IMG/VR virus record: IMGVR_UViG_2585427738_000003
Reading direction: 5' to 3' (one strand)
Length of the DNA: 15,598 nucleotides
DNA from: a virus
Taxonomy: Duplodnaviria > Heunggongvirae > Uroviricota > Caudoviricetes
Shown here: one piece after another, positions 1,687 to 10,533 of the stretch
Numbering within the stretch: the first letter of the stretch is position 1
Layout of the letters: every line of letters begins with the position of its first letter
Program-made: the position numbers and the translations under genes
The notes under the pieces: generated by a model
The model's input: the letters and a program-made list of their open reading frames with translations, nothing else
Told to the model about the DNA's origin: nothing
Database searches by the model: none

Positions 1687-2118
1687 ATGGCTCAGGCTGC
1701 CATTTTTAAAGAAATATTCGATCAAGTGCGTAAAGATTTAAACTGTGAATTATTTTATTCTGAGCTAAAACGTCACAATGTCTCACTTTATATTTACTAT
1801 TTAGCCACAGATAATATTCACATTGTGTTAGAAAACGACAACATAGTGTTAGTAAAAGGACTCAAAAAGGTTGTAAATGTTAAATTCTCCAGAAACAAAC
1901 ATCTTATAGAGACCTCCTATAATAAGTTGAAATCAAAAGAAATCACATTTCAACAATACAGGGAAAATCTTGCTAAAGCAGGAGTTTTCCGATGGGTTAC
2001 AAATATCCAGGAACACCAAAGATATTACTATGCCTTTGATAACTCATTACTATTTACTGAAAGCATCCAGAAAATTACTGAAAGCATCCAGAAAACTACA
2101 CAGATCTTACCACGCTAA
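1687..2118 (+). CDS. ydfO: YdfO-like protein (DUF1398 family), 143 aa
   Basis: Translation [33 protein letters not shown]... matches my recollection of Qin YdfO. Start chosen at the second ATG (1687), which has GGAAGG about 7 nt upstream; the track ORF starts at 1672. Contains a 21-bp in-frame tandem duplication at 2056-2097. Confidence 0.75.
2056..2097 (+). repeat. 21-bp tandem duplication inside ydfO (ACTGAAAGCATCCAGAAAATT / ACTGAAAGCATCCAGAAAACT)
   Basis: Two adjacent 21-nt units, 20/21 identical, encoding [14 protein letters not shown] in frame. Confidence 0.9.
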
Positions 2119-2269
2119 ACCATAACGTCCGGCTTCTCTCACTCCTGAGCCGGACTGCATTGGTTTAATAAAAACCATCAACAATTGTGATTTAGATATT
2201 CGGAACCATTCAAATATAACAAAACCCCGTAAAAACGAGGTTTATGGATAAATTTTATTATTGAATACA

Positions 2270-2443
2270 TCAGATTAAATTAATCTTGACATCATAGCTT
2301 TCAAGACCCGTCATTTTTTCCCGTGCGGTAAACTGAATACTGGTAACTTCTTTCCCGGTCTTTTTCTTAAGTTCAATAATTTTTTTTGTTATATATTCAG
2401 AAATATCTGCTTCTGCTTTTGTTTTTAAGTCTTCAATATTCAT
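2270..2443 (-). CDS. gnsB: GnsB-like small protein (57 aa)
   Basis: Hand translation of the minus strand gives M(M)NIEDLKTKAEADISEYITKKIIELKKKTGKEVTSIQFTAREKMTGLESYDVKINLI, closely resembling my recollection of GnsA/GnsB. GAGGAA precedes the ATG doublet; stop is TGA (TCA on + at 2270-2272). Missed by the ORF track because it is under 60 aa. The start may instead be the upstream ATG at 2446. Confidence 0.75.
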   Translation of the reverse strand: MNIEDLKTKAEADISEYITKKIIELKKKTGKEVTSIQFTAREKMTGLESYDVKINLI

Positions 2444-2614
2444 CATTTCCTCTTTTAGTCTGTTATGACTTTCCAGTTACACAGTAAGTCGATTATATGG
2501 TGCAAACGTGTAAAAGATAAGATGAAACATCGCAATAATCAACATACGATAGTCTAAATTTTACACAAACAGACAAAGAGAATTTTCCTGAATTATCAAT
2601 GCAATAGCATCAAA

Positions 2615-2845
2615 TCAACTCAAGAGCCTTATTGCTGCTTCCAGAATTTCTTCTGAAGTAACATGTCGATCCGCGGCTACATAAATGACTTTATGATCTC
2701 CGGTCAGAGATGGAAACCCTGCGGCCATTACAGTAAGGTGTGTTTTTTCGCCATTTGGATATTCACGCATGATGGTGTTAACTCCAGTCATCGCTGGCAC
2801 TACCACTGCTGGTTCAGAGTTAAAAAAAACTATGATTTTTTTCAT
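2615..2845 (-). CDS. ynfN: YnfN-like small protein (76 aa)
   Basis: Track ORF 2615-2887 starts at a TTG; the first ATG (2843-2845) gives MKKIIVFFNSEPAVVVPAMTGVNTIMREYPNGEKTHLTVMAAGFPSLTGDHK.... Position between gnsB and cspI matches the Qin order as I recall it. Confidence 0.6.
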   Translation of the reverse strand: MKKIIVFFNSEPAVVVPAMTGVNTIMREYPNGEKTHLTVMAAGFPSLTGDHKVIYVAADRHVTSEEILEAAIRLLS

Positions 2846-3116
2846 GATGTTACCGTAGTATGTGAGTATCCATCGAATAGACACCAAGCAAAAAAGCTCC
2901 CGAAGGAGCCTTCATTTTCACTTTTTTAAATCCAACGACAGACGGCTGGCATTTAAGTATTGTGAAATATTATCAAATGTAATCATCATTGATTTACAAA
3001 AGATACATTTTGCCCCGAAAGGATTCATGTCAGAAACATCAAAAGATGATGTTCTATACTGGGAACCATGACAACACGGGCATCTAAAGTGAATATGGTT
3101 TGTAATATTGTCTACC

Positions 3117-3329
3117 TCAAAGCGCCACTACATGAACAGCGGCAGGACCTTTAGGTCCGTTCTCAATACCAAATTCAACTTCCTGATTCTCAGTTAATGT
3201 TTTGAAATCGTTGCTCTGAATTGCTGAGAAATGGACAAACACATCTTTGCTGCCATCTTTCGGCGTGATGAAACCAAAACCTTTTTCAGGGTTAAACCAT
3301 TTCACTAAACCAGTCATTTTGTTAGACAT
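3117..3329 (-). CDS. cspI: Cold-shock protein CspI (CspA family, 70 aa)
   Basis: [70 protein letters not shown] carries the canonical RNP motifs (KGFGFI, VFVHF). AAGG lies upstream of the ATG; about 360 bp of non-coding sequence lies upstream, consistent with a long cold-shock leader. Confidence 0.9.
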
Positions 3330-3690
3330 AATTATTACCTTTTGAAGAAATTAGCCCTTGGGCAGAATGGTCCGAAAAAAATATCAGAGAGAAAAACCAA
3401 CAAGGAAATCTCAAGAGGTACAAATAATAAAATTATAACAATGACTGCTTCAGATAAATTTGTAACAAACCAGAACACCATTAACGCATGATTAACCACC
3501 CATAGCAAGGATTACTTTTGTAAAGAAAAACACAGCAATGAAAGAATAGCTTTATTTATTAATAAAACGTGTCATTCTGATTAAGACCTTTTATCTTACC
3601 CTTAAGATTTCAGGAATTTTGGCTCATGGAAGAGTCCTTTTTATTCAAATTTTACATTCCGCGATGTAAATGTTCCGATTTAATATTACC

Positions 3691-4714
<1,024 letters not shown>

Positions 4715-7149: not shown

Positions 7150-7902
7150 TTATCTCGTCACCTTCCTCAATTGCGCTTCCGCGTATGCTTCTTCCTGCCA
7201 GCACTTTGTTACCAGTTTACCAATGACGTCCGCATACCCCTTATACCACTGATAATCGGTCAGGTCTGGTACCAGCTTCTGGACATGACGTCGTGCCAGC
7301 GTGGTCGGTAAACGACTAAACCGGTTTCCATTACAACGCCCACAAATCTTATATACCGGTACGCCATGAAACCGGGTTCTTTTTTCATCCAGAACAATCC
7401 CTTTACCCTTACACCCTCTGCACGCTGTGCTGGCTTCGCCCTTACCATGGCAATGCTGACATAGTTCCTTCACCCATTCTTCCTTGATTACAGATTCCCC
7501 GCGTCTGTAGTGTTTCACCACTTCGCGCAATACATTATAAAATCCCGTACCTGAACAATGCTCACAGCGAGCCTTACTTGCCGCAGACCTGGAGTAATCA
7601 GCAAAGGCAAAACTCACGAGGTAAGGAATAATCTGTAACCGGATTTCTTCACTCAATTTGTTCAATGTCGGGTTATCCAGTGCCATCGCGTAATTTAGCA
7701 GGCCTTCAATCGCAAACTGAGGGTCCTGAACACCAACTTTTGCCAGAAATAAGGCCAACCCAAGTGGTGCTTTCGACTGCACCATCCCCTGCGCTGCCAT
7801 TACATCCGTAATTGTTAAACAACCGGTGCCTGTCGCTGGAGCGTCATCGCTCAATTTTGGAGATTTTGGGGAGTAATATTTTGGTAAGGCTTCAAGGTTC
7901 AT
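7150..7902 (-). CDS. quuQ: Late-gene antiterminator Q (phage 82/21-type), 250 aa
   Basis: Start at the ATG at 7900-7902 (MNLEALPKYY...) with GGAG about 9 nt upstream; the track ORF starts earlier. Multiple CxxC pairs (CEHCSGTG, CQHCHGKG, CRGCKGKG, CGRCNGN) fit the Q zinc-binding region. Located upstream of the lysis cassette on the same strand. Confidence 0.8.
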   Translation of the reverse strand: MNLEALPKYYSPKSPKLSDDAPATGTGCLTITDVMAAQGMVQSKAPLGLALFLAKVGVQDPQFAIEGLLNYAMALDNPTLNKLSEEIRLQIIPYLVSFAFADYSRSAASKARCEHCSGTGFYNVLREVVKHYRRGESVIKEEWVKELCQHCHGKGEASTACRGCKGKGIVLDEKRTRFHGVPVYKICGRCNGNRFSRLPTTLARRHVQKLVPDLTDYQWYKGYADVIGKLVTKCWQEEAYAEAQLRKVTR

Positions 7903-7915
7903 GCTCGTTCTCCAC

Positions 7916-8965
7916 TTACGCCAGTACGCCAATTGCCAGCGCGCGATCGATAAAACGAAATATCAGCTCCAGTTGGGAGCCATACTTATCTTCAAATGCC
8001 ACTGTATCCGTATGCAGCTCGTTGTGATGCTTTCTGCACAAAGGCAACACAAAGAGATCATGTGCTTTTGTTCCCATTCCGCCCTGCCCGTGACCAATCA
8101 GATGATGCGGATCGTCGGCTGGCATACCGCAGCAAGCACACGGCTGTGTCTTAACCCAACGTGTGTATTTCTCCTTAACCCAGCGGCGACGTTTAGGCAG
8201 CTTCATGAAAGATTCCGGAGACTCTGGATCAACGGTGATGCTTACCACCGTCTTTTCCTGTGGTGATTTTTGTTGCTGGTGGGCGTAAGGCAACGGTGCA
8301 AGATTTTTTGTGCGTTGTTTCAATATGCTGGTGGCGGTCTGCTCTCCCGGTACGATGTCGCTTTCGCGGTACACCGAGCAGATTTTTTCCGCTGGTAATC
8401 CCAGCGAACGACGCGATACAGCCTCAGGTAGTGCATCCACCACCTGATTGCAGACCGCCCACCAGGATAATTCAGCCAAAGATAATTCCCGCTCCTGCGT
8501 ACCGCTTATTGCGTGACGGATGACGTCAATCACCCATGCTGTCAGATTTTGTTGAGCAAGCAGCTCCAGTGATTCCGATGTCTGGTCACGCAGTTGGTTG
8601 TCGCAGTGCCAGCACAACACCATTGCGCCGGTACCATAACGGTGAATGACTGTTTCAGTGTGATGGTAATCGCCATTAGGCCACTGGCAGGATGTAACAT
8701 GACGTAATAGCCAGTCGGACAATGCGCCAACGCCGCCAGCAGCACGAATCACCCGTTCGTTACTAAAAAACGGCAGCAATGTTTTGTCTTCCGCCATCGG
8801 CTGGCGAACGGCAGGAACGACTCCGGATGGCAGATTACGCATGCTTTTTGGTTCCGGTTCCACCAGCACTCGAGGATTATGAAATATCTGTATGGATTCA
8901 CGGCCCGGCTTAAGGACCACCAGCCCAAGCTCAGGCACCAGAACAGGTCTAAGTAATACCCGCAC
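7916..8965 (-). CDS. ydfU: YdfU-like protein (DUF968) with C-terminal HNH-like motif, 349 aa, probable GTG start
   Basis: Track ORF begins at a GTG at 9004. I place the start at the in-frame GTG at 8963-8965 because GGAGG lies 5 nt upstream and it sits 1 nt after the rem stop (translational coupling); this gives 349 aa. C-terminus CACCGMPADDPHHLIGHG...PLCRKHHNELH resembles an HNH nuclease motif. Confidence 0.7.
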   Translation of the reverse strand: MRVLLRPVLVPELGLVVLKPGRESIQIFHNPRVLVEPEPKSMRNLPSGVVPAVRQPMAEDKTLLPFFSNERVIRAAGGVGALSDWLLRHVTSCQWPNGDYHHTETVIHRYGTGAMVLCWHCDNQLRDQTSESLELLAQQNLTAWVIDVIRHAISGTQERELSLAELSWWAVCNQVVDALPEAVSRRSLGLPAEKICSVYRESDIVPGEQTATSILKQRTKNLAPLPYAHQQQKSPQEKTVVSITVDPESPESFMKLPKRRRWVKEKYTRWVKTQPCACCGMPADDPHHLIGHGQGGMGTKAHDLFVLPLCRKHHNELHTDTVAFEDKYGSQLELIFRFIDRALAIGVLA

Positions 8966-8966
8966 G

Positions 8967-9245
8967 TTACCTCCAGATCCGTTGCTGGAAAGTGCGGGAC
9001 GCACGTGGTGGGCGTTCGGAATAAGGCAGCCTGACAGAGATTATCCAGTGCCGATAGTCGAGACTGAGAGCTTTCTTAACCTCGAACCCGCGCCTGCGGT
9101 AAGAATGAATCAGCCATTCGGCCTGTTCTGCAGTGCATGGAGGGTGCTGGAACCATTCAGACTTGAATGCGTGAGAATACCGCCCGTGCGTGCAGGCAAG
9201 AACGGGCGAATTATCAGAATTGTAATATTTTGCGTTGCGTGCCAT
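8967..9245 (-). CDS. rem: Rem-like small protein (92 aa), unknown function
   Basis: ATG at 9243-9245; MARNAKYYNSDNSPVLACTHGRYSHAFKSEWFQHPPCTAEQAEWLIHSYRRRGFEVKK...; stop TAA 8967-8969 immediately precedes the ydfU start. Confidence 0.65.
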   Translation of the reverse strand: MARNAKYYNSDNSPVLACTHGRYSHAFKSEWFQHPPCTAEQAEWLIHSYRRRGFEVKKALSLDYRHWIISVRLPYSERPPRASRTFQQRIWR

Positions 9246-9311
9246 CGGTTTTCTCCGGTGGCACGGTGTTACTCAGCGGGAGTTCAGCCCCGCGCAAGAT
9301 TGTAGATGAGT

Positions 9312-9563
9312 TTATTCTCCTGAAAAAGCAGAAAAGCCAGCTTTTATTCCGATCTCTTTCAATGCCTGTAATGAAGTGACAAACTCACCTTCGCGCAAGA
9401 TAAATCCGTCCGTGACCCGAGCATCCACAAAATTAATTAACGCAGCCCCATTCTTTCGCAAACACATAATGCGGTAATGACTAACAAGATTTCCATTTTC
9501 AACGCACACAGCATAGAGGCCATCTTCACAAAAAATTTTACGCAGTTCTTCGATGTTCATCAT
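9312..9563 (-). CDS. Hypothetical protein (83 aa)
   Basis: ATG-ATG start at 9558-9563 with GGAAGGA upstream on the minus strand; MMNIEELRKIFCEDGLYAVCVENGNLVSHYRIMCLRKNGAALINFVDARVTDGFILREGEFVTSLQALKEIGIKAGFSAFSGE. I do not recognise the family. Confidence 0.5.
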   Translation of the reverse strand: MMNIEELRKIFCEDGLYAVCVENGNLVSHYRIMCLRKNGAALINFVDARVTDGFILREGEFVTSLQALKEIGIKAGFSAFSGE

Positions 9564-9680
9564 CAGAATCCTTCCGGATAATTAGCTCTCCCCTTTAAGG
9601 GACCATCCCTCTTATCCCTGCGCGCTACTTAAGTATTTTTGATTCTATTCCGGCACCGTCCAGAACTTCAAACGCGTTGA

Positions 9681-9711
9681 AAATAAAAACAAAAACCCGC
9701 CGAAGCGGGTT
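9681..9711 (-). terminator. Rho-independent terminator downstream of hokD (end of the relB-relE-hokD transcript)
   Basis: On the minus strand: AACCCGC-TTCG-GCGGGTT followed by TTTTGTTTTTATTTT. Confidence 0.6.
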
Positions 9712-9779
9712 AAGTGCGGGTGCGTTGAGGATGCCTGCCACATCAGAGGTGGCGAGGGATTTCTCCCCCGCCGGGTCTC

Positions 9780-9935
9780 TTACTCCTCAGGTTCGTAAGC
9801 TGTGAAGACAGCGACCTCCGTCTGGCCGGTTCGGATTCGTACCTCGCAGAGGTCTTTCCTCGTTACCAGTGCCGTCACTATGACGGTTAAACAGATGACG
9901 ATCAGGGCGATTAACATCGCCTTTTGCTGCTTCAT
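9780..9935 (-). CDS. hokD: Hok-family membrane toxin HokD/RelF (51 aa)
   Basis: Hand translation gives MKQQKAMLIALIVICLTVIVTALVTRKDLCEVRIRTGQTEVAVFTAYEPEE, a typical Hok toxin with N-terminal transmembrane helix and conserved C-terminus. Below the track size cut-off. Downstream of relE on the same strand. Confidence 0.85.
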   Translation of the reverse strand: MKQQKAMLIALIVICLTVIVTALVTRKDLCEVRIRTGQTEVAVFTAYEPEE

Positions 9936-10006
9936 AGCCTGCTTCTCCTGTCAACGCAAAGCAGAAGTGTCACCTTCGGTGCGAAACAGAGATGTCATGC
10001 TTTGGT

Positions 10007-10294
10007 TCAGAGAATGCGTTTGACCGCCTCGCTATATACTTCCGAGCGTTCTCTTTTCCCAACAGAAATCACGAAAACGACAACTTTCTCGTCTATAACC
10101 TGGTATACAAGGCGATAGCCTGAAGACCGGAGCTTAATCTTGTAACAATCAGGCATACCACGGAGCTTGTTTGCTTCAATCCGGGGTGACTCAAGTACTT
10201 CAACCAGCTTCTTTTTCAACTGTTCACGTACCGTCGAGCCCAGCTTTCGCCATTCCTTTAGTGCCCGCTCGTCAAAATCCAGAAAATACGCCAT
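10007..10294 (-). CDS. relE: RelE mRNA-interferase toxin (95 aa)
   Basis: MAYFLDFDERALKEWRKLGSTVREQLKKKLVEVLESPRIEANKLRGMPDCYKIKLRSSGYRLVYQVIDEKVVVFVISVGKRERSEVYSEAVKRIL; start overlaps the relB stop. Confidence 0.9.
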   Translation of the reverse strand: MAYFLDFDERALKEWRKLGSTVREQLKKKLVEVLESPRIEANKLRGMPDCYKIKLRSSGYRLVYQVIDEKVVVFVISVGKRERSEVYSEAVKRIL

Positions 10295-10533
10295 CAGAGT
10301 TCATCCAGCGTCACACGTACTGGCTTAGGATTACGAAGCCGTTCTTTCACTATCTCCACAAGTTCAGCATCTTCATCACTCAGGAGTGTCTGTTTGAACG
10401 GCAAGCGTTCATTGTCAGCGATATACTCGAGCATGAGACGAAGCGCTTCAGAAGGAGTTACACCCATTTTTTCAAGCGCGGCGTAAGAACGCGCTTTAAG
10501 TTCATCGTCAATACGCAGGTTAATGCTACCCAT
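10294..10533 (-). CDS. relB: RelB antitoxin (79 aa)
   Basis: MGSINLRIDDELKARSYAALEKMGVTPSEALRLMLEYIADNERLPFKQTLLSDEDAELVEIVKERLRNPKPVRVTLDEL has a ribbon-helix-helix-like N-terminus; immediately upstream of and overlapping relE. Confidence 0.9.
   Translation of the reverse strand: MGSINLRIDDELKARSYAALEKMGVTPSEALRLMLEYIADNERLPFKQTLLSDEDAELVEIVKERLRNPKPVRVTLDEL

Follow-up and report, generated by a model that had tools for sequence, protein, structure and literature searches.

A phrog_1212 gene adjoins ydfU, which encodes a probable His-Me finger nuclease, in the Escherichia coli Qin prophage

YdfU, a DUF968 protein, was placed by name in 2017 in His-Me finger group 7, alongside YbcO of DLP12 and phage 82 (Pfam YbcO, formerly DUF1364; PDB 3g27) (PMC5714182). 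YbcO occupies the same slot before RusA/Q as YdfU, and phrog_1212 genes precede YbcO relatives in mEp237 and phiES15. YbcO is, however, a single 96-aa domain, whereas YdfU, at 349 aa, opens with a large, conserved Cys/His domain followed by a helical middle, and sequence similarity between the two is by itself not significant, consisting of a weak in-register match to 3g27 (E 0.69). Lambda Rap/NinG (PF05766) is likewise a zinc-containing His-Me endonuclease encoded in the nin region just before Q (PMC5714182). NinG is the commonest gene to follow phrog_1212 relatives (95 loci), with the same succession of Shine-Dalgarno sequence (SD), stop and start as at ydfU. It nevertheless belongs to a different Pfam family, falls in His-Me group 24 rather than group 7, and arranges its domains differently; branch-specific nuclease activity has been shown for Rap, whereas in the literature that we searched none is reported for YdfU or any other DUF968 protein.

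Two further families share parts of the YdfU architecture. The HNHc_6 profile (PF16784), known from Orf-HNH fusions of Listeria and Staphylococcus phages (Curtis et al. 2014, PMC4118853), matches the YdfU C-terminus alone. Both the fusions and YdfU are phage recombination-module proteins with a C-terminal zinc-finger HNH, but their N-terminal domains are not demonstrably related. An Orf/NinB-HNH fusion architecture has been proposed for DUF968 (PMC4118853); profile searches did not bear it out, NinB/Orf being unmatched by full-length YdfU (E <= 1) and by its separate parts (E <= 10). P1 PdcB, in turn, is homologous to YdfU over its full length, with 26% identity across residues 32–348, and shares the N-terminal CQ...CWHxDN cluster. 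In PdcB, however, the HH and the final H of the C-terminal HNH are replaced, and pdcB follows phd-doc-pdcA, whereas ydfU lies in a nin region.

Coupled gene pairs in which a hairpin masks the downstream ribosome-binding site are known from many operons and from RNA phages. The pair formed by ydfU and the small gene before it resembles them in its 1-nt gap, in the SD lying within the upstream ORF, and in the predicted pairing of SD and start codon with upstream coding sequence. It differs from them in that close packing is the default for the ydfU family with any upstream neighbour.

The window analysed here, 15,598 nucleotides in full, is the E. coli Qin prophage, with 100% and 99.9% matches to RefSeq-annotated E. 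coli chromosomes. ydfU and its neighbours all lie on the minus strand, in the order rem, 92-aa phrog_1212 gene, ydfU, ydfT. RefSeq annotates rem at 9312–9563 (83 aa; WP_000980994.1 / b1561), and its product is a DicA antirepressor (PMC10448788). The 92-aa ORF occupies 8967–9245 (ATG 9245–9243, TAA 8969–8967), 66 nt from rem, and is called by PGAP as a 'hypothetical protein' (WP_012304870.1). ydfU itself, a widespread 'y-gene', spans 7916–8965 (GTG start, 349 aa, TAA 7918–7916), 346 nt from rem and at the same coordinates as RefSeq WP_001265198.1 / b1560. It is followed by ydfT/quuQ at 7150–7902, annotated in RefSeq as a Q-type antiterminator (Pfam Antiterm, E 3.6e-54). An earlier, sequence-only reading of this locus had put the end of ydfU 13 nt before Q, and the 13 positions 7915–7903 do separate the ydfU stop from the ydfT ATG (7902–7900). 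The same reading had named the small gene abutting ydfU as rem. That identification fails: rem lies one gene further upstream, and BLASTP aligned the 92-aa ORF with Rem nowhere at E <= 100. We interpret 7150–9563 (minus strand) as a probable recombination/late-regulator segment of cryptic Qin, a putative equivalent of lambda ninR made up of four separate genes. The slot before Q is held by YdfU in Qin and by NinG or YbcO in relatives. A PADLOC search for defence systems returned no matches for YdfU, the 92-aa ORF or Rem.

The small protein matches phrog_1212 with E 1.7e-35, and its gene is missing from the curated MG1655 record NC_000913.3. Relatives of the ORF form 129 clusters at 90% identity, mostly of 90–92 aa; a search of 1.84 billion representative proteins gave 75 clusters at the 50% level. 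Residues 1–26 are variable and disordered, and residues 27–92 form a conserved core; dN/dS is 0.08–0.24 in the core and ~0.3–1.9 in the N-terminal extension, and indels keep the reading frame. An SD-like GGAG (9253–9256, minus strand) precedes the ATG by 7 nt. By these comparative measures, the 92-aa ORF is a real, conserved gene under purifying selection. The AlphaFold2 (AF2) model is disordered over residues 1–23 and continues as beta-alpha-beta-beta with a C-terminal helix. Pfam yielded nothing for the 92-aa protein at E <= 1 and nothing for a 67-aa relative at E <= 0.01, NCBIfam gave no match to the 92-aa protein, and Foldseek searches of the model against PDB and BFVD returned no informative match. 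The best BFVD match was N15 'Orf QD1' (E 1.2e-03, 31% identical), which is probably a member of the phrog_1212 family. Two other identities were considered and set aside. NinE, NinF and NinH were ruled out, the corresponding Pfam models being unmatched, and P1 PdcA (66 aa, encoded upstream of pdcB) shows no similarity and belongs to another PHROG.

On the minus strand, the junction between the two genes reads GGAGG (8974–8970), TAA (8969–8967), C (8966), GTG (8965–8963). The 1-nt separation between the small-ORF stop and the GTG, claimed by the sequence-only reading, can be read directly, and the GTG opens an in-frame run of 349 codons. The GGAGG at 8970–8974 is formed by TGG AGG, the last two sense codons of the 92-aa ORF; it had been placed 5 nt before the GTG, and the actual spacer is 4 nt (TAAC). 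The sequence GGAGGTAACGTG is invariant in 80 close (>= 89% identical) IMG/VR loci, differs among GTDB species-level loci only by a C-to-T change in the spacer (2 of 7), and is retained even where the small protein is only 63–71% identical. The 66-aa phrog_1212 relatives have an analogous ending, TGG GGN TGA nn ATG. A GGAGG followed at 3–8 nt by a start codon is neither rarer than chance nor enriched in the window (3 found, 5.8 expected); the weight of the motif lies in its position and conservation.

Several lines of comparison support initiation of ydfU at this GTG (8963–8965), which is also the RefSeq and MG1655 start. Six YdfU homologues with 29–61% identity, P1 PdcB among them, align from residue 1. 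The codon at that position is GTG in 43, ATG in 31 and TTG in 6 of 80 GTDB loci. Codons 2–54 show dN/dS of 0–0.5, indicating purifying selection, and phrog_96 covers YdfU residues 1–349 with profile positions 1–334 of 334. A 362-aa YdfU starting from a GTG at 9004, the old UniProt length given in the P1 record, was rejected on two grounds: where a different gene lies upstream, homologues begin at the aligned residue 1, and the added codons would run into the conserved small ORF. As judged from these alignments, translation of ydfU begins at GTG 8965, a start already annotated.

The SD and the GTG-CGGG that begins ydfU fall within a predicted RNA hairpin (8959–8998, minus strand) of 14 bp plus a 4-nt bulge, in which they face codons ~82–86 of the 92-aa ORF. 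Its minimum free energy is -19.3 kcal/mol, with 1 of 200 shuffles equally stable; the z score of -2.9 is optimistic, because the folded segment was picked after the fold had been seen. The same stem recurs in a 110-nt fold, but z there is -0.86. In diverged copies the stem persists, with two substitutions that allow wobble pairing and a single broken pair, the latter in the natural variant L283. No compensatory covariation was seen in the stem among the diverged copies compared, and its conservation is confounded by amino acids conserved on both hairpin arms. Synonymous divergence (dS) in the 92-aa ORF is 0–0.36 over the last 14 codons, compared with 0.3–2.7 in the core. Because the predicted hairpin would trap both SD and GTG, ordinary translational coupling appears to be the most likely mechanism. 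A ribosome ending the 92-aa gene would melt the hairpin and terminate one base before the GTG, and the same ribosome, or a newly recruited one, could then initiate ydfU. Coupling between the small gene and ydfU is thus plausible on the sequence and the folding model. Of the coupling earlier proposed between rem and ydfU, the coupling-type junction with its SD inside the upstream ORF is retained, and rem as the upstream partner is not.

The GGAGG could also allow ydfU to initiate independently, and the tight junction might then be mere compaction of a lambdoid early-right operon, with ydfU served by its own strong SD and with the hairpin and low dS as by-products of conserved codons. The gene neighbourhoods speak for such compaction. 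Directly 5' of ydfU, 80 species-level loci carry Rha/ANT (28), RusA (15), KilA-N (12), a phrog_1212 gene (9) or other genes (~14), and the unrelated neighbours sit just as close: Rha/ANT genes overlap ydfU by 4 nt in 28 of 28 cases, RusA genes overlap it by 4–16 nt, and KilA-N genes leave gaps of 7–15 nt. Almost all of these alternative junctions are as tight as that of Qin, and the nin regions of Gifsy-2, mEp237 and phiES15 contain other genes that overlap or almost abut. The lack of enrichment of the GGAGG-start motif in the window and of covariation in the stem fits as well. Yet an SD and start codon held within a predicted stem of -19 kcal/mol would hinder free 30S binding, and amino-acid conservation alone does not explain the drop in dS over the last 14 codons. 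We regard compaction with independent initiation as rather unlikely, and retain coupling as the preferred reading of the junction. Because unrelated upstream genes are packed equally tightly, the closeness of the two genes is poor evidence that they are specific partners.

The sequence-only reading had gone further and proposed a conserved Rem/YdfU unit, possibly a nuclease with a small partner. The conserved unit does not hold up: the partner was misidentified, the genes upstream of ydfU vary, and the small gene abuts only 9 of the 80 species-level ydfU genes. In the other 71 it is not directly upstream, with RusA lying between the two in 8. Nor do the small gene and DUF968 form an obligate pair, since NinG or YbcO follows the majority of phrog_1212 genes. 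What survives of the idea is that the family nearly always precedes a His-Me nuclease gene, with Rem playing no part. Loci were sought by single-sequence scans. In ~195 sampled phrog_1212 loci, the next gene encodes NinG/Rap in 95, YdfU in 80, YbcO in 14 and RusA in only 1; in 5, something else or a shortened gene follows. YdfU, NinG and YbcO belong to three different Pfam families and are all His-Me fingers. This near-constant position before a His-Me nuclease gene is the sole mildly new lead from the locus.

One interpretation of that position is that phrog_1212 proteins serve the His-Me nucleases of nin regions as dedicated partners, whether subunit, regulator or inhibitor, with coupling ensuring co-production. 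Besides the adjacency, such a partnership is favoured by the W-R/G codons that supply the SD, followed by the stop, 1–2 nt and the start, all of which persist though the downstream gene changes, and by a Klebsiella 67-aa member that directly abuts a YdfU only 50% identical. Set against these observations, the small gene is missing from directly upstream of most ydfU genes, as counted above, and in PY54 it follows an RdgC-like gene and precedes an unrelated 175-aa protein. Lambda NinG and DLP12 YbcO presumably have other small genes, ninF and ninE, in the phrog_1212 slot, which also counts against partnership. No fusion to a nuclease occurs among the 75 family representatives; a fusion search with the small domain gave one O-protein chimera, the sole long match, and one repeat artefact. 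Lambdoid phages keep their gene order to a high degree, which makes adjacency by itself a weak argument for a partner, and conserved nin-region gene order could explain it equally well. We consider a dedicated partner unlikely.

The earlier reading had also seen an HNH-like motif in CACCG...DPHH...CRKHHNELH at the YdfU C-terminus and suggested a search against HNH profiles. Both the residues and the profile matches bear it out. The His-Me finger (HNH) core maps to residues 268–330 (7976–8164, minus strand), with zinc ligands C276, C279, C310 and H313 and catalytic-type residues H287/H288, D303 and H318. HNHc_6 scores 29.5 bits on the isolated residues 254–349, above its cut-off of 26.6, and 26.3 bits, just under the cut-off, on full-length YdfU; RecA_dep_nuc scores 21.8 bits on the isolated C-terminus. 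YdfU matches Pfam DUF968 (E 1.4e-76) and, over its full length, phrog_96 'HNH endonuclease' (E 3.3e-171); it also matches phrog_131, which has the same annotation. In a 48-sequence alignment, C276, C279 and C310 are invariant and position 313 is H or C, giving a zinc site CxxC...CxxC/H; D303 is likewise invariant, and H287/H288 and H318 are present in >= 90% of the sequences. In weak but in-register profile matches, H287/H288, D303 and H318 align with the HH...N...H of IscB HNH domains.

The AF2 model of YdfU places strands at 285–288 and 306–309 and a helix at 311–319, with pLDDT of ~83–89, and a loop at 291–297 with pLDDT below 50. Structure comparison supports an HNH fold weakly: Foldseek of the model against PDB gave nothing at E <= 0.001, and its top matches were HNH proteins at E >= 0.4. 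A profile search of PDB was similarly weak (best E 0.065; YbcO 3g27, E 0.69), as was phmmer against PDB sequences, and NCBIfam held no match to YdfU. Taking residue conservation and profile matches together, the YdfU C-terminus is a zinc-stabilised His-Me (HNH) finger with intact catalytic-type residues, an assignment already published.

Upstream of this finger, YdfU would comprise a Cys/His domain (residues 1–155), a helical middle and a disordered linker (residues ~228–249). The N-terminal domain (8501–8965, minus strand) contains conserved C93, H101, C118, C/H121 and D122, and no Pfam model matches residues 1–155. AF2 predicts a beta-beta-alpha element there, with strands at 105–110 and 113–118 and a helix at 119–125 (pLDDT ~90). 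We considered whether CQW...HH...LCWHCDNQL in this domain is a second HNH copy and rejected it, since hhalign on sub-alignments of the 48 sequences gave a probability < 1%. BLASTP aligns the N-terminal cluster and the C-terminal HNH in register at E 0.26. The predicted N-terminal beta-beta-alpha element is no more than a structural hint toward duplication.

From its protein family and genomic context, YdfU is most likely a DNA endonuclease, probably one acting on branched DNA or recombination intermediates in phage recombination or replication. Alternatively, the prophage may be decaying and YdfU a remnant in it that binds DNA or regulates but does not work as a nuclease. Qin is cryptic and Rho-silenced, P1 PdcB retains the fold after losing the HH and C-terminal H, and the C-terminal module of YdfU is mosaic between alleles. 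The Qin copy nonetheless keeps all zinc and catalytic-type residues, 3478 of 5426 complete E. coli genomes carry ydfU at full length, dN/dS of 0.05–0.26 over residues 55–250 indicates purifying selection, and functional temperate phages carry intact orthologues. On this evidence a remnant is very unlikely, and an endonuclease remains the preferred reading. K-12 ydfU sits downstream of a strong Rho-dependent terminator (PMC9160355), and with Qin cryptic as well, both expression and activity of ydfU in a K-12-type host are uncertain.

Four separate genes, a GTG-started ydfU, coupling through the hairpin and a YdfU that is a probable nuclease together make up what we judge the likely explanation of the locus. 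As regards ydfU, the finding is mostly ordinary, because the GTG was annotated, the HNH assignment was published in 2017, and tight junctions are normal in lambdoid early operons. The 92-codon gene between rem and ydfU is a candidate addition to the MG1655 reference annotation. The conserved YdfU N-terminal Cys/His domain, which no Pfam model covers, may explain substrate specificity. More speculatively, and with the odds clearly against it, the phrog_1212 proteins (66–92 aa) may be an unrecognised accessory or regulatory factor of nin-region His-Me nucleases, co-translated with YdfU, Rap/NinG or YbcO through a junction whose SD lies in the last codons of the small gene; the position of their genes before those of three nuclease families makes a possible accessory factor for Rap-type recombination nucleases a testable hypothesis.

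We examined the gene identities around the ydfU junction. A 1.6-kb stretch spanning it is 99.9–100% identical to many E. coli chromosomes and is matched in 4918 of 5426 complete genomes, 3478 of them with at least 80% query coverage; in strains C600 and MG1655 it sits within the cryptic prophage Qin. The genes concerned all lie on the minus strand, in the order relB-relE-hokD-rem, a 92-aa ORF, ydfU, ydfT (the Q antiterminator), cspF, cspB and the lysis genes. The sequence-only reading had named the ORF upstream of ydfU rem, which is wrong. In RefSeq, rem (83 aa) lies at 9312–9563 (minus strand), and the ORF at 8967–9245 (minus strand) is a separate gene, present in PGAP-annotated genomes as "hypothetical protein" WP_012304870.1, with no similarity between the two proteins on comparison. 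In the curated MG1655 record NC_000913.3 this ORF is unannotated, and ydfU and rem are separated by a 346-nt "intergenic" gap. Rem is known as an antirepressor that lifts DicA repression of the dicBF operon (PMC10448788), a role of an unrelated kind.

A toxin-antitoxin cargo site lies upstream of the small gene (in Qin, at 9640–10533 on the minus strand, upstream of the intervening rem). Its content differs by prophage: hokD and relBE in Qin, parDE in the compared loci L283–L285 (L283, 1303–1865), and a hok gene in locus L287 (1624–1836). The site looks like an insertion hot spot for accessory ("moron") genes.

With high confidence, the 92-aa ORF is a real gene, and it is under purifying selection. 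It matches PHROG family phrog_1212 (E 1.7e-35), has 129 relatives at the 90%-cluster level, most of 90–92 aa, and indels between its copies preserve the reading frame. In pairwise Nei-Gojobori comparisons of copies with 63–91% protein identity, dN/dS is 0.08–0.24 for residues 27–78 and about 0.3–1.9 for residues 1–26, which evolve almost neutrally. AlphaFold predicts residues 1–26 to be disordered and residues 29–74 to fold into a beta-alpha-beta-beta unit with a short helix after it. Distant relatives of 66–68 aa, from Salmonella, Klebsiella, Cronobacter and Yersinia phages, consist of the core only. The family is small, with 75 clusters at 50% identity among 1.84 billion representative proteins. 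No model in Pfam, NCBIfam or PADLOC matched the small protein, and structure searches returned no informative neighbor.

The GTG start of ydfU (8965–8963, minus strand), in frame with a 349-codon ORF ending in TAA at 7918–7916, is correct and already known, being the start in RefSeq and MG1655 (349 aa). Homologues of 29–61% identity from E. coli, Providencia and Vibrio phages and from P1 (PdcB) align from residue 1 and share a conserved N-terminus, M-R-x-L-L...KPG; in the phrog_96 alignment, YdfU 1–349 matches 1–334 of 334. At the position of residue 1, 80 species-level loci from GTDB genomes have GTG (43), ATG (31) or TTG (6). For codons 2–54, dN/dS is 0–0.5. An older 362-aa reading from GTG 9004 would run into the conserved small ORF, and no homologue has an equivalent.

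Read on the minus strand, the junction runs ...TGG AGG TAA C GTG CGG..., so that the small ORF's stop (8969–8967) stands 1 nt (C, 8966) from the in-frame GTG, as the sequence-only reading had it. The GGAGG Shine-Dalgarno motif noted there is also present, within the final two codons of the upstream ORF (8974–8970, minus strand), with a spacer of 4 nt rather than 5. Downstream, 13 bases separate the ydfU stop from the start at 7902 of a protein that strongly matches Antiterm (Q). The anatomy of the ydfU junction is classical for translational coupling. A predicted 40-nt hairpin (8998–8959; −19.3 kcal/mol, z −2.9 against shuffles) pairs the Shine-Dalgarno sequence and GTG-CGGG with about codons 82–86 of the small ORF; a 110-nt fold contains the same stem and is unremarkable as a whole (z −0.86). 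The junction string is identical in all 80 closely related IMG/VR loci, recurs in GTDB species representatives with one C-to-T change in the spacer, and is retained where the small protein is only 63–71% identical. In those diverged copies two stem changes are wobble-compatible, one breaks a pair and none is compensatory, so covariation does not decide for or against the stem. Synonymous divergence in the small ORF falls from a dS of 0.3–2.7 in the core to 0–0.36 in the last 14 codons, which points to selection on the RNA itself. Judged from sequence, coupling through ribosome-mediated unmasking is plausible and a reasonable inference.

Such tight junctions are generic. Upstream neighbors in the ydfU family include Rha/ANT antirepressors (28 loci, all with a 4-nt overlap), RusA (15), KilA-N (12) and others, the latter three kinds overlapping ydfU or leaving a gap of a few bases, and nin genes are equally packed in Gifsy-2, mEp237 and phiES15.

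In rho mutants, ydfU rises about 4-fold (log2 about 2) and rem does not, and the terminator preceding ydfU is one of the strongest in E. coli that depend on Rho (PMC9160355). In K-12, ydfU is probably silent. The region upstream of ydfU (8966–9311, between rem and ydfU) is that of the 92-aa ORF, whose translation status may therefore control Rho access. Just upstream of the ORF there is a sigma-70-like site (9326 to 9299, minus strand).

The C-terminal residues likened earlier to an HNH motif are present in the YdfU translation, the profile search suggested there as a check gives a positive result, and the HNH assignment is correct, though not new. Full-length YdfU matches Pfam DUF968 (1.4e-76) and reaches 26.3 bits against HNHc_6, slightly under the 26.6-bit cut-off; its last 96 residues alone score 29.5 bits, above it, and 21.8 bits against RecA_dep_nuc, the P1 Ref family. 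Across 48 aligned sequences (26–98% identity), C276, C279 and C310 never vary and position 313 is occupied by H or C, giving a CxxC...CxxH/C zinc site; D303 is also invariant, and at least 90% of the sequences retain H287, H288, H302 and H318. The AlphaFold model (mean pLDDT 78.8) places the C-terminal zinc and catalytic residues on a predicted beta-beta-alpha element. A domain profile aligns in register with IscB HNH domains (E 0.065–0.35) and YbcO 3g27 (E 0.69), none significant alone; the best Foldseek matches are all HNH proteins (Cas5-HNH, Cap5, IscB), but with E of at least 0.4. An HNH zinc finger in DUF968 proteins was noted by Curtis et al. 2014 (PMC4118853), and Jablonska et al. 2017 later assigned DUF968, along with DUF1364, to His-Me finger group 7, naming Qin YdfU explicitly (PMC5714182). 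Our literature search found no biochemical study of a DUF968 protein.

Two very different alleles of the HNH module (YdfU aa 251–349; 7919–8215, minus strand) occur in otherwise similar ydfU genes (compared loci L283, L286 and L208), with dN about 0.39 and saturated dS, against dN about 0.05 for residues 55–160. This suggests that recombination swaps the nuclease module.

The large, conserved N-terminal domain, covered by no Pfam model, carries a Cys/His cluster (C93, H101, C118-x2-C/H121, D122; aa 93–123, 8597–8689 on the minus strand) on a predicted beta-beta-alpha element with no detectable sequence relation to the C-terminal HNH. YdfU takes the slot that Rap/NinG has in lambda and YbcO-RusA in DLP12, and its His-Me catalytic set is intact. 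On family and context, YdfU is best read as a DNA endonuclease tied to recombination or replication, its extra domains conferring substrate choice. P1 PdcB (2405–3448 in the P1 locus), a full-length homologue of unknown function after phd-doc-pdcA, differs in having the HH and final H of the C-terminal motif replaced, and may be catalytically dead.

A conserved unit of small gene and ydfU exists within one lineage only. Every Qin-type ydfU (at least about 77% identity) has the 92-aa gene upstream, and in two Klebsiella loci a 67-aa member directly precedes a 50%-identical YdfU. The broader "Rem/YdfU unit" proposed earlier does not hold as described: besides the misnaming, the small gene lies directly upstream in only 9 of 80 species-level ydfU loci and one gene away, with RusA between, in 8; in the other 63 it is absent within 2.5 kb. 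Viewed from the small gene, the next gene is NinG/Rap in 95, YdfU in 80, YbcO in 14, RusA in 1 and other or truncated in 5 of about 195 sampled loci, a sample skewed toward sequences closely related to three queries. YdfU, NinG and YbcO are all His-Me fingers, from three different Pfam families, and the junction design (TGG-GRG-stop-1-2 nt-start) is constant across them. A functional link could explain the pattern, and so, just as well, could the set order of genes in the nin recombination module, where NinB/Orf, DUF1367 or RdgC is found upstream and RusA or Q comes after the nuclease. No fusion of the small domain supporting physical partnership appeared among the 1.84 billion representative proteins. 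One of these, P0469 (248 aa), joins a replication protein O N-terminus to the C-terminal 55 residues of a Gifsy-type small protein; it probably arose by deletion and not as a functional fusion. Yersinia phage PY54, a linear-plasmid prophage, is one of the few exceptions to the nuclease-after-small-gene rule; there (2012–3765 in the PY54 locus) the phrog_1212 gene sits between an RdgC-like gene upstream and the gene for an unrelated 175-aa protein (phrog_1372) downstream. The residual novelty is a conserved small gene, unannotated in K-12, and its regular placement before His-Me nucleases.
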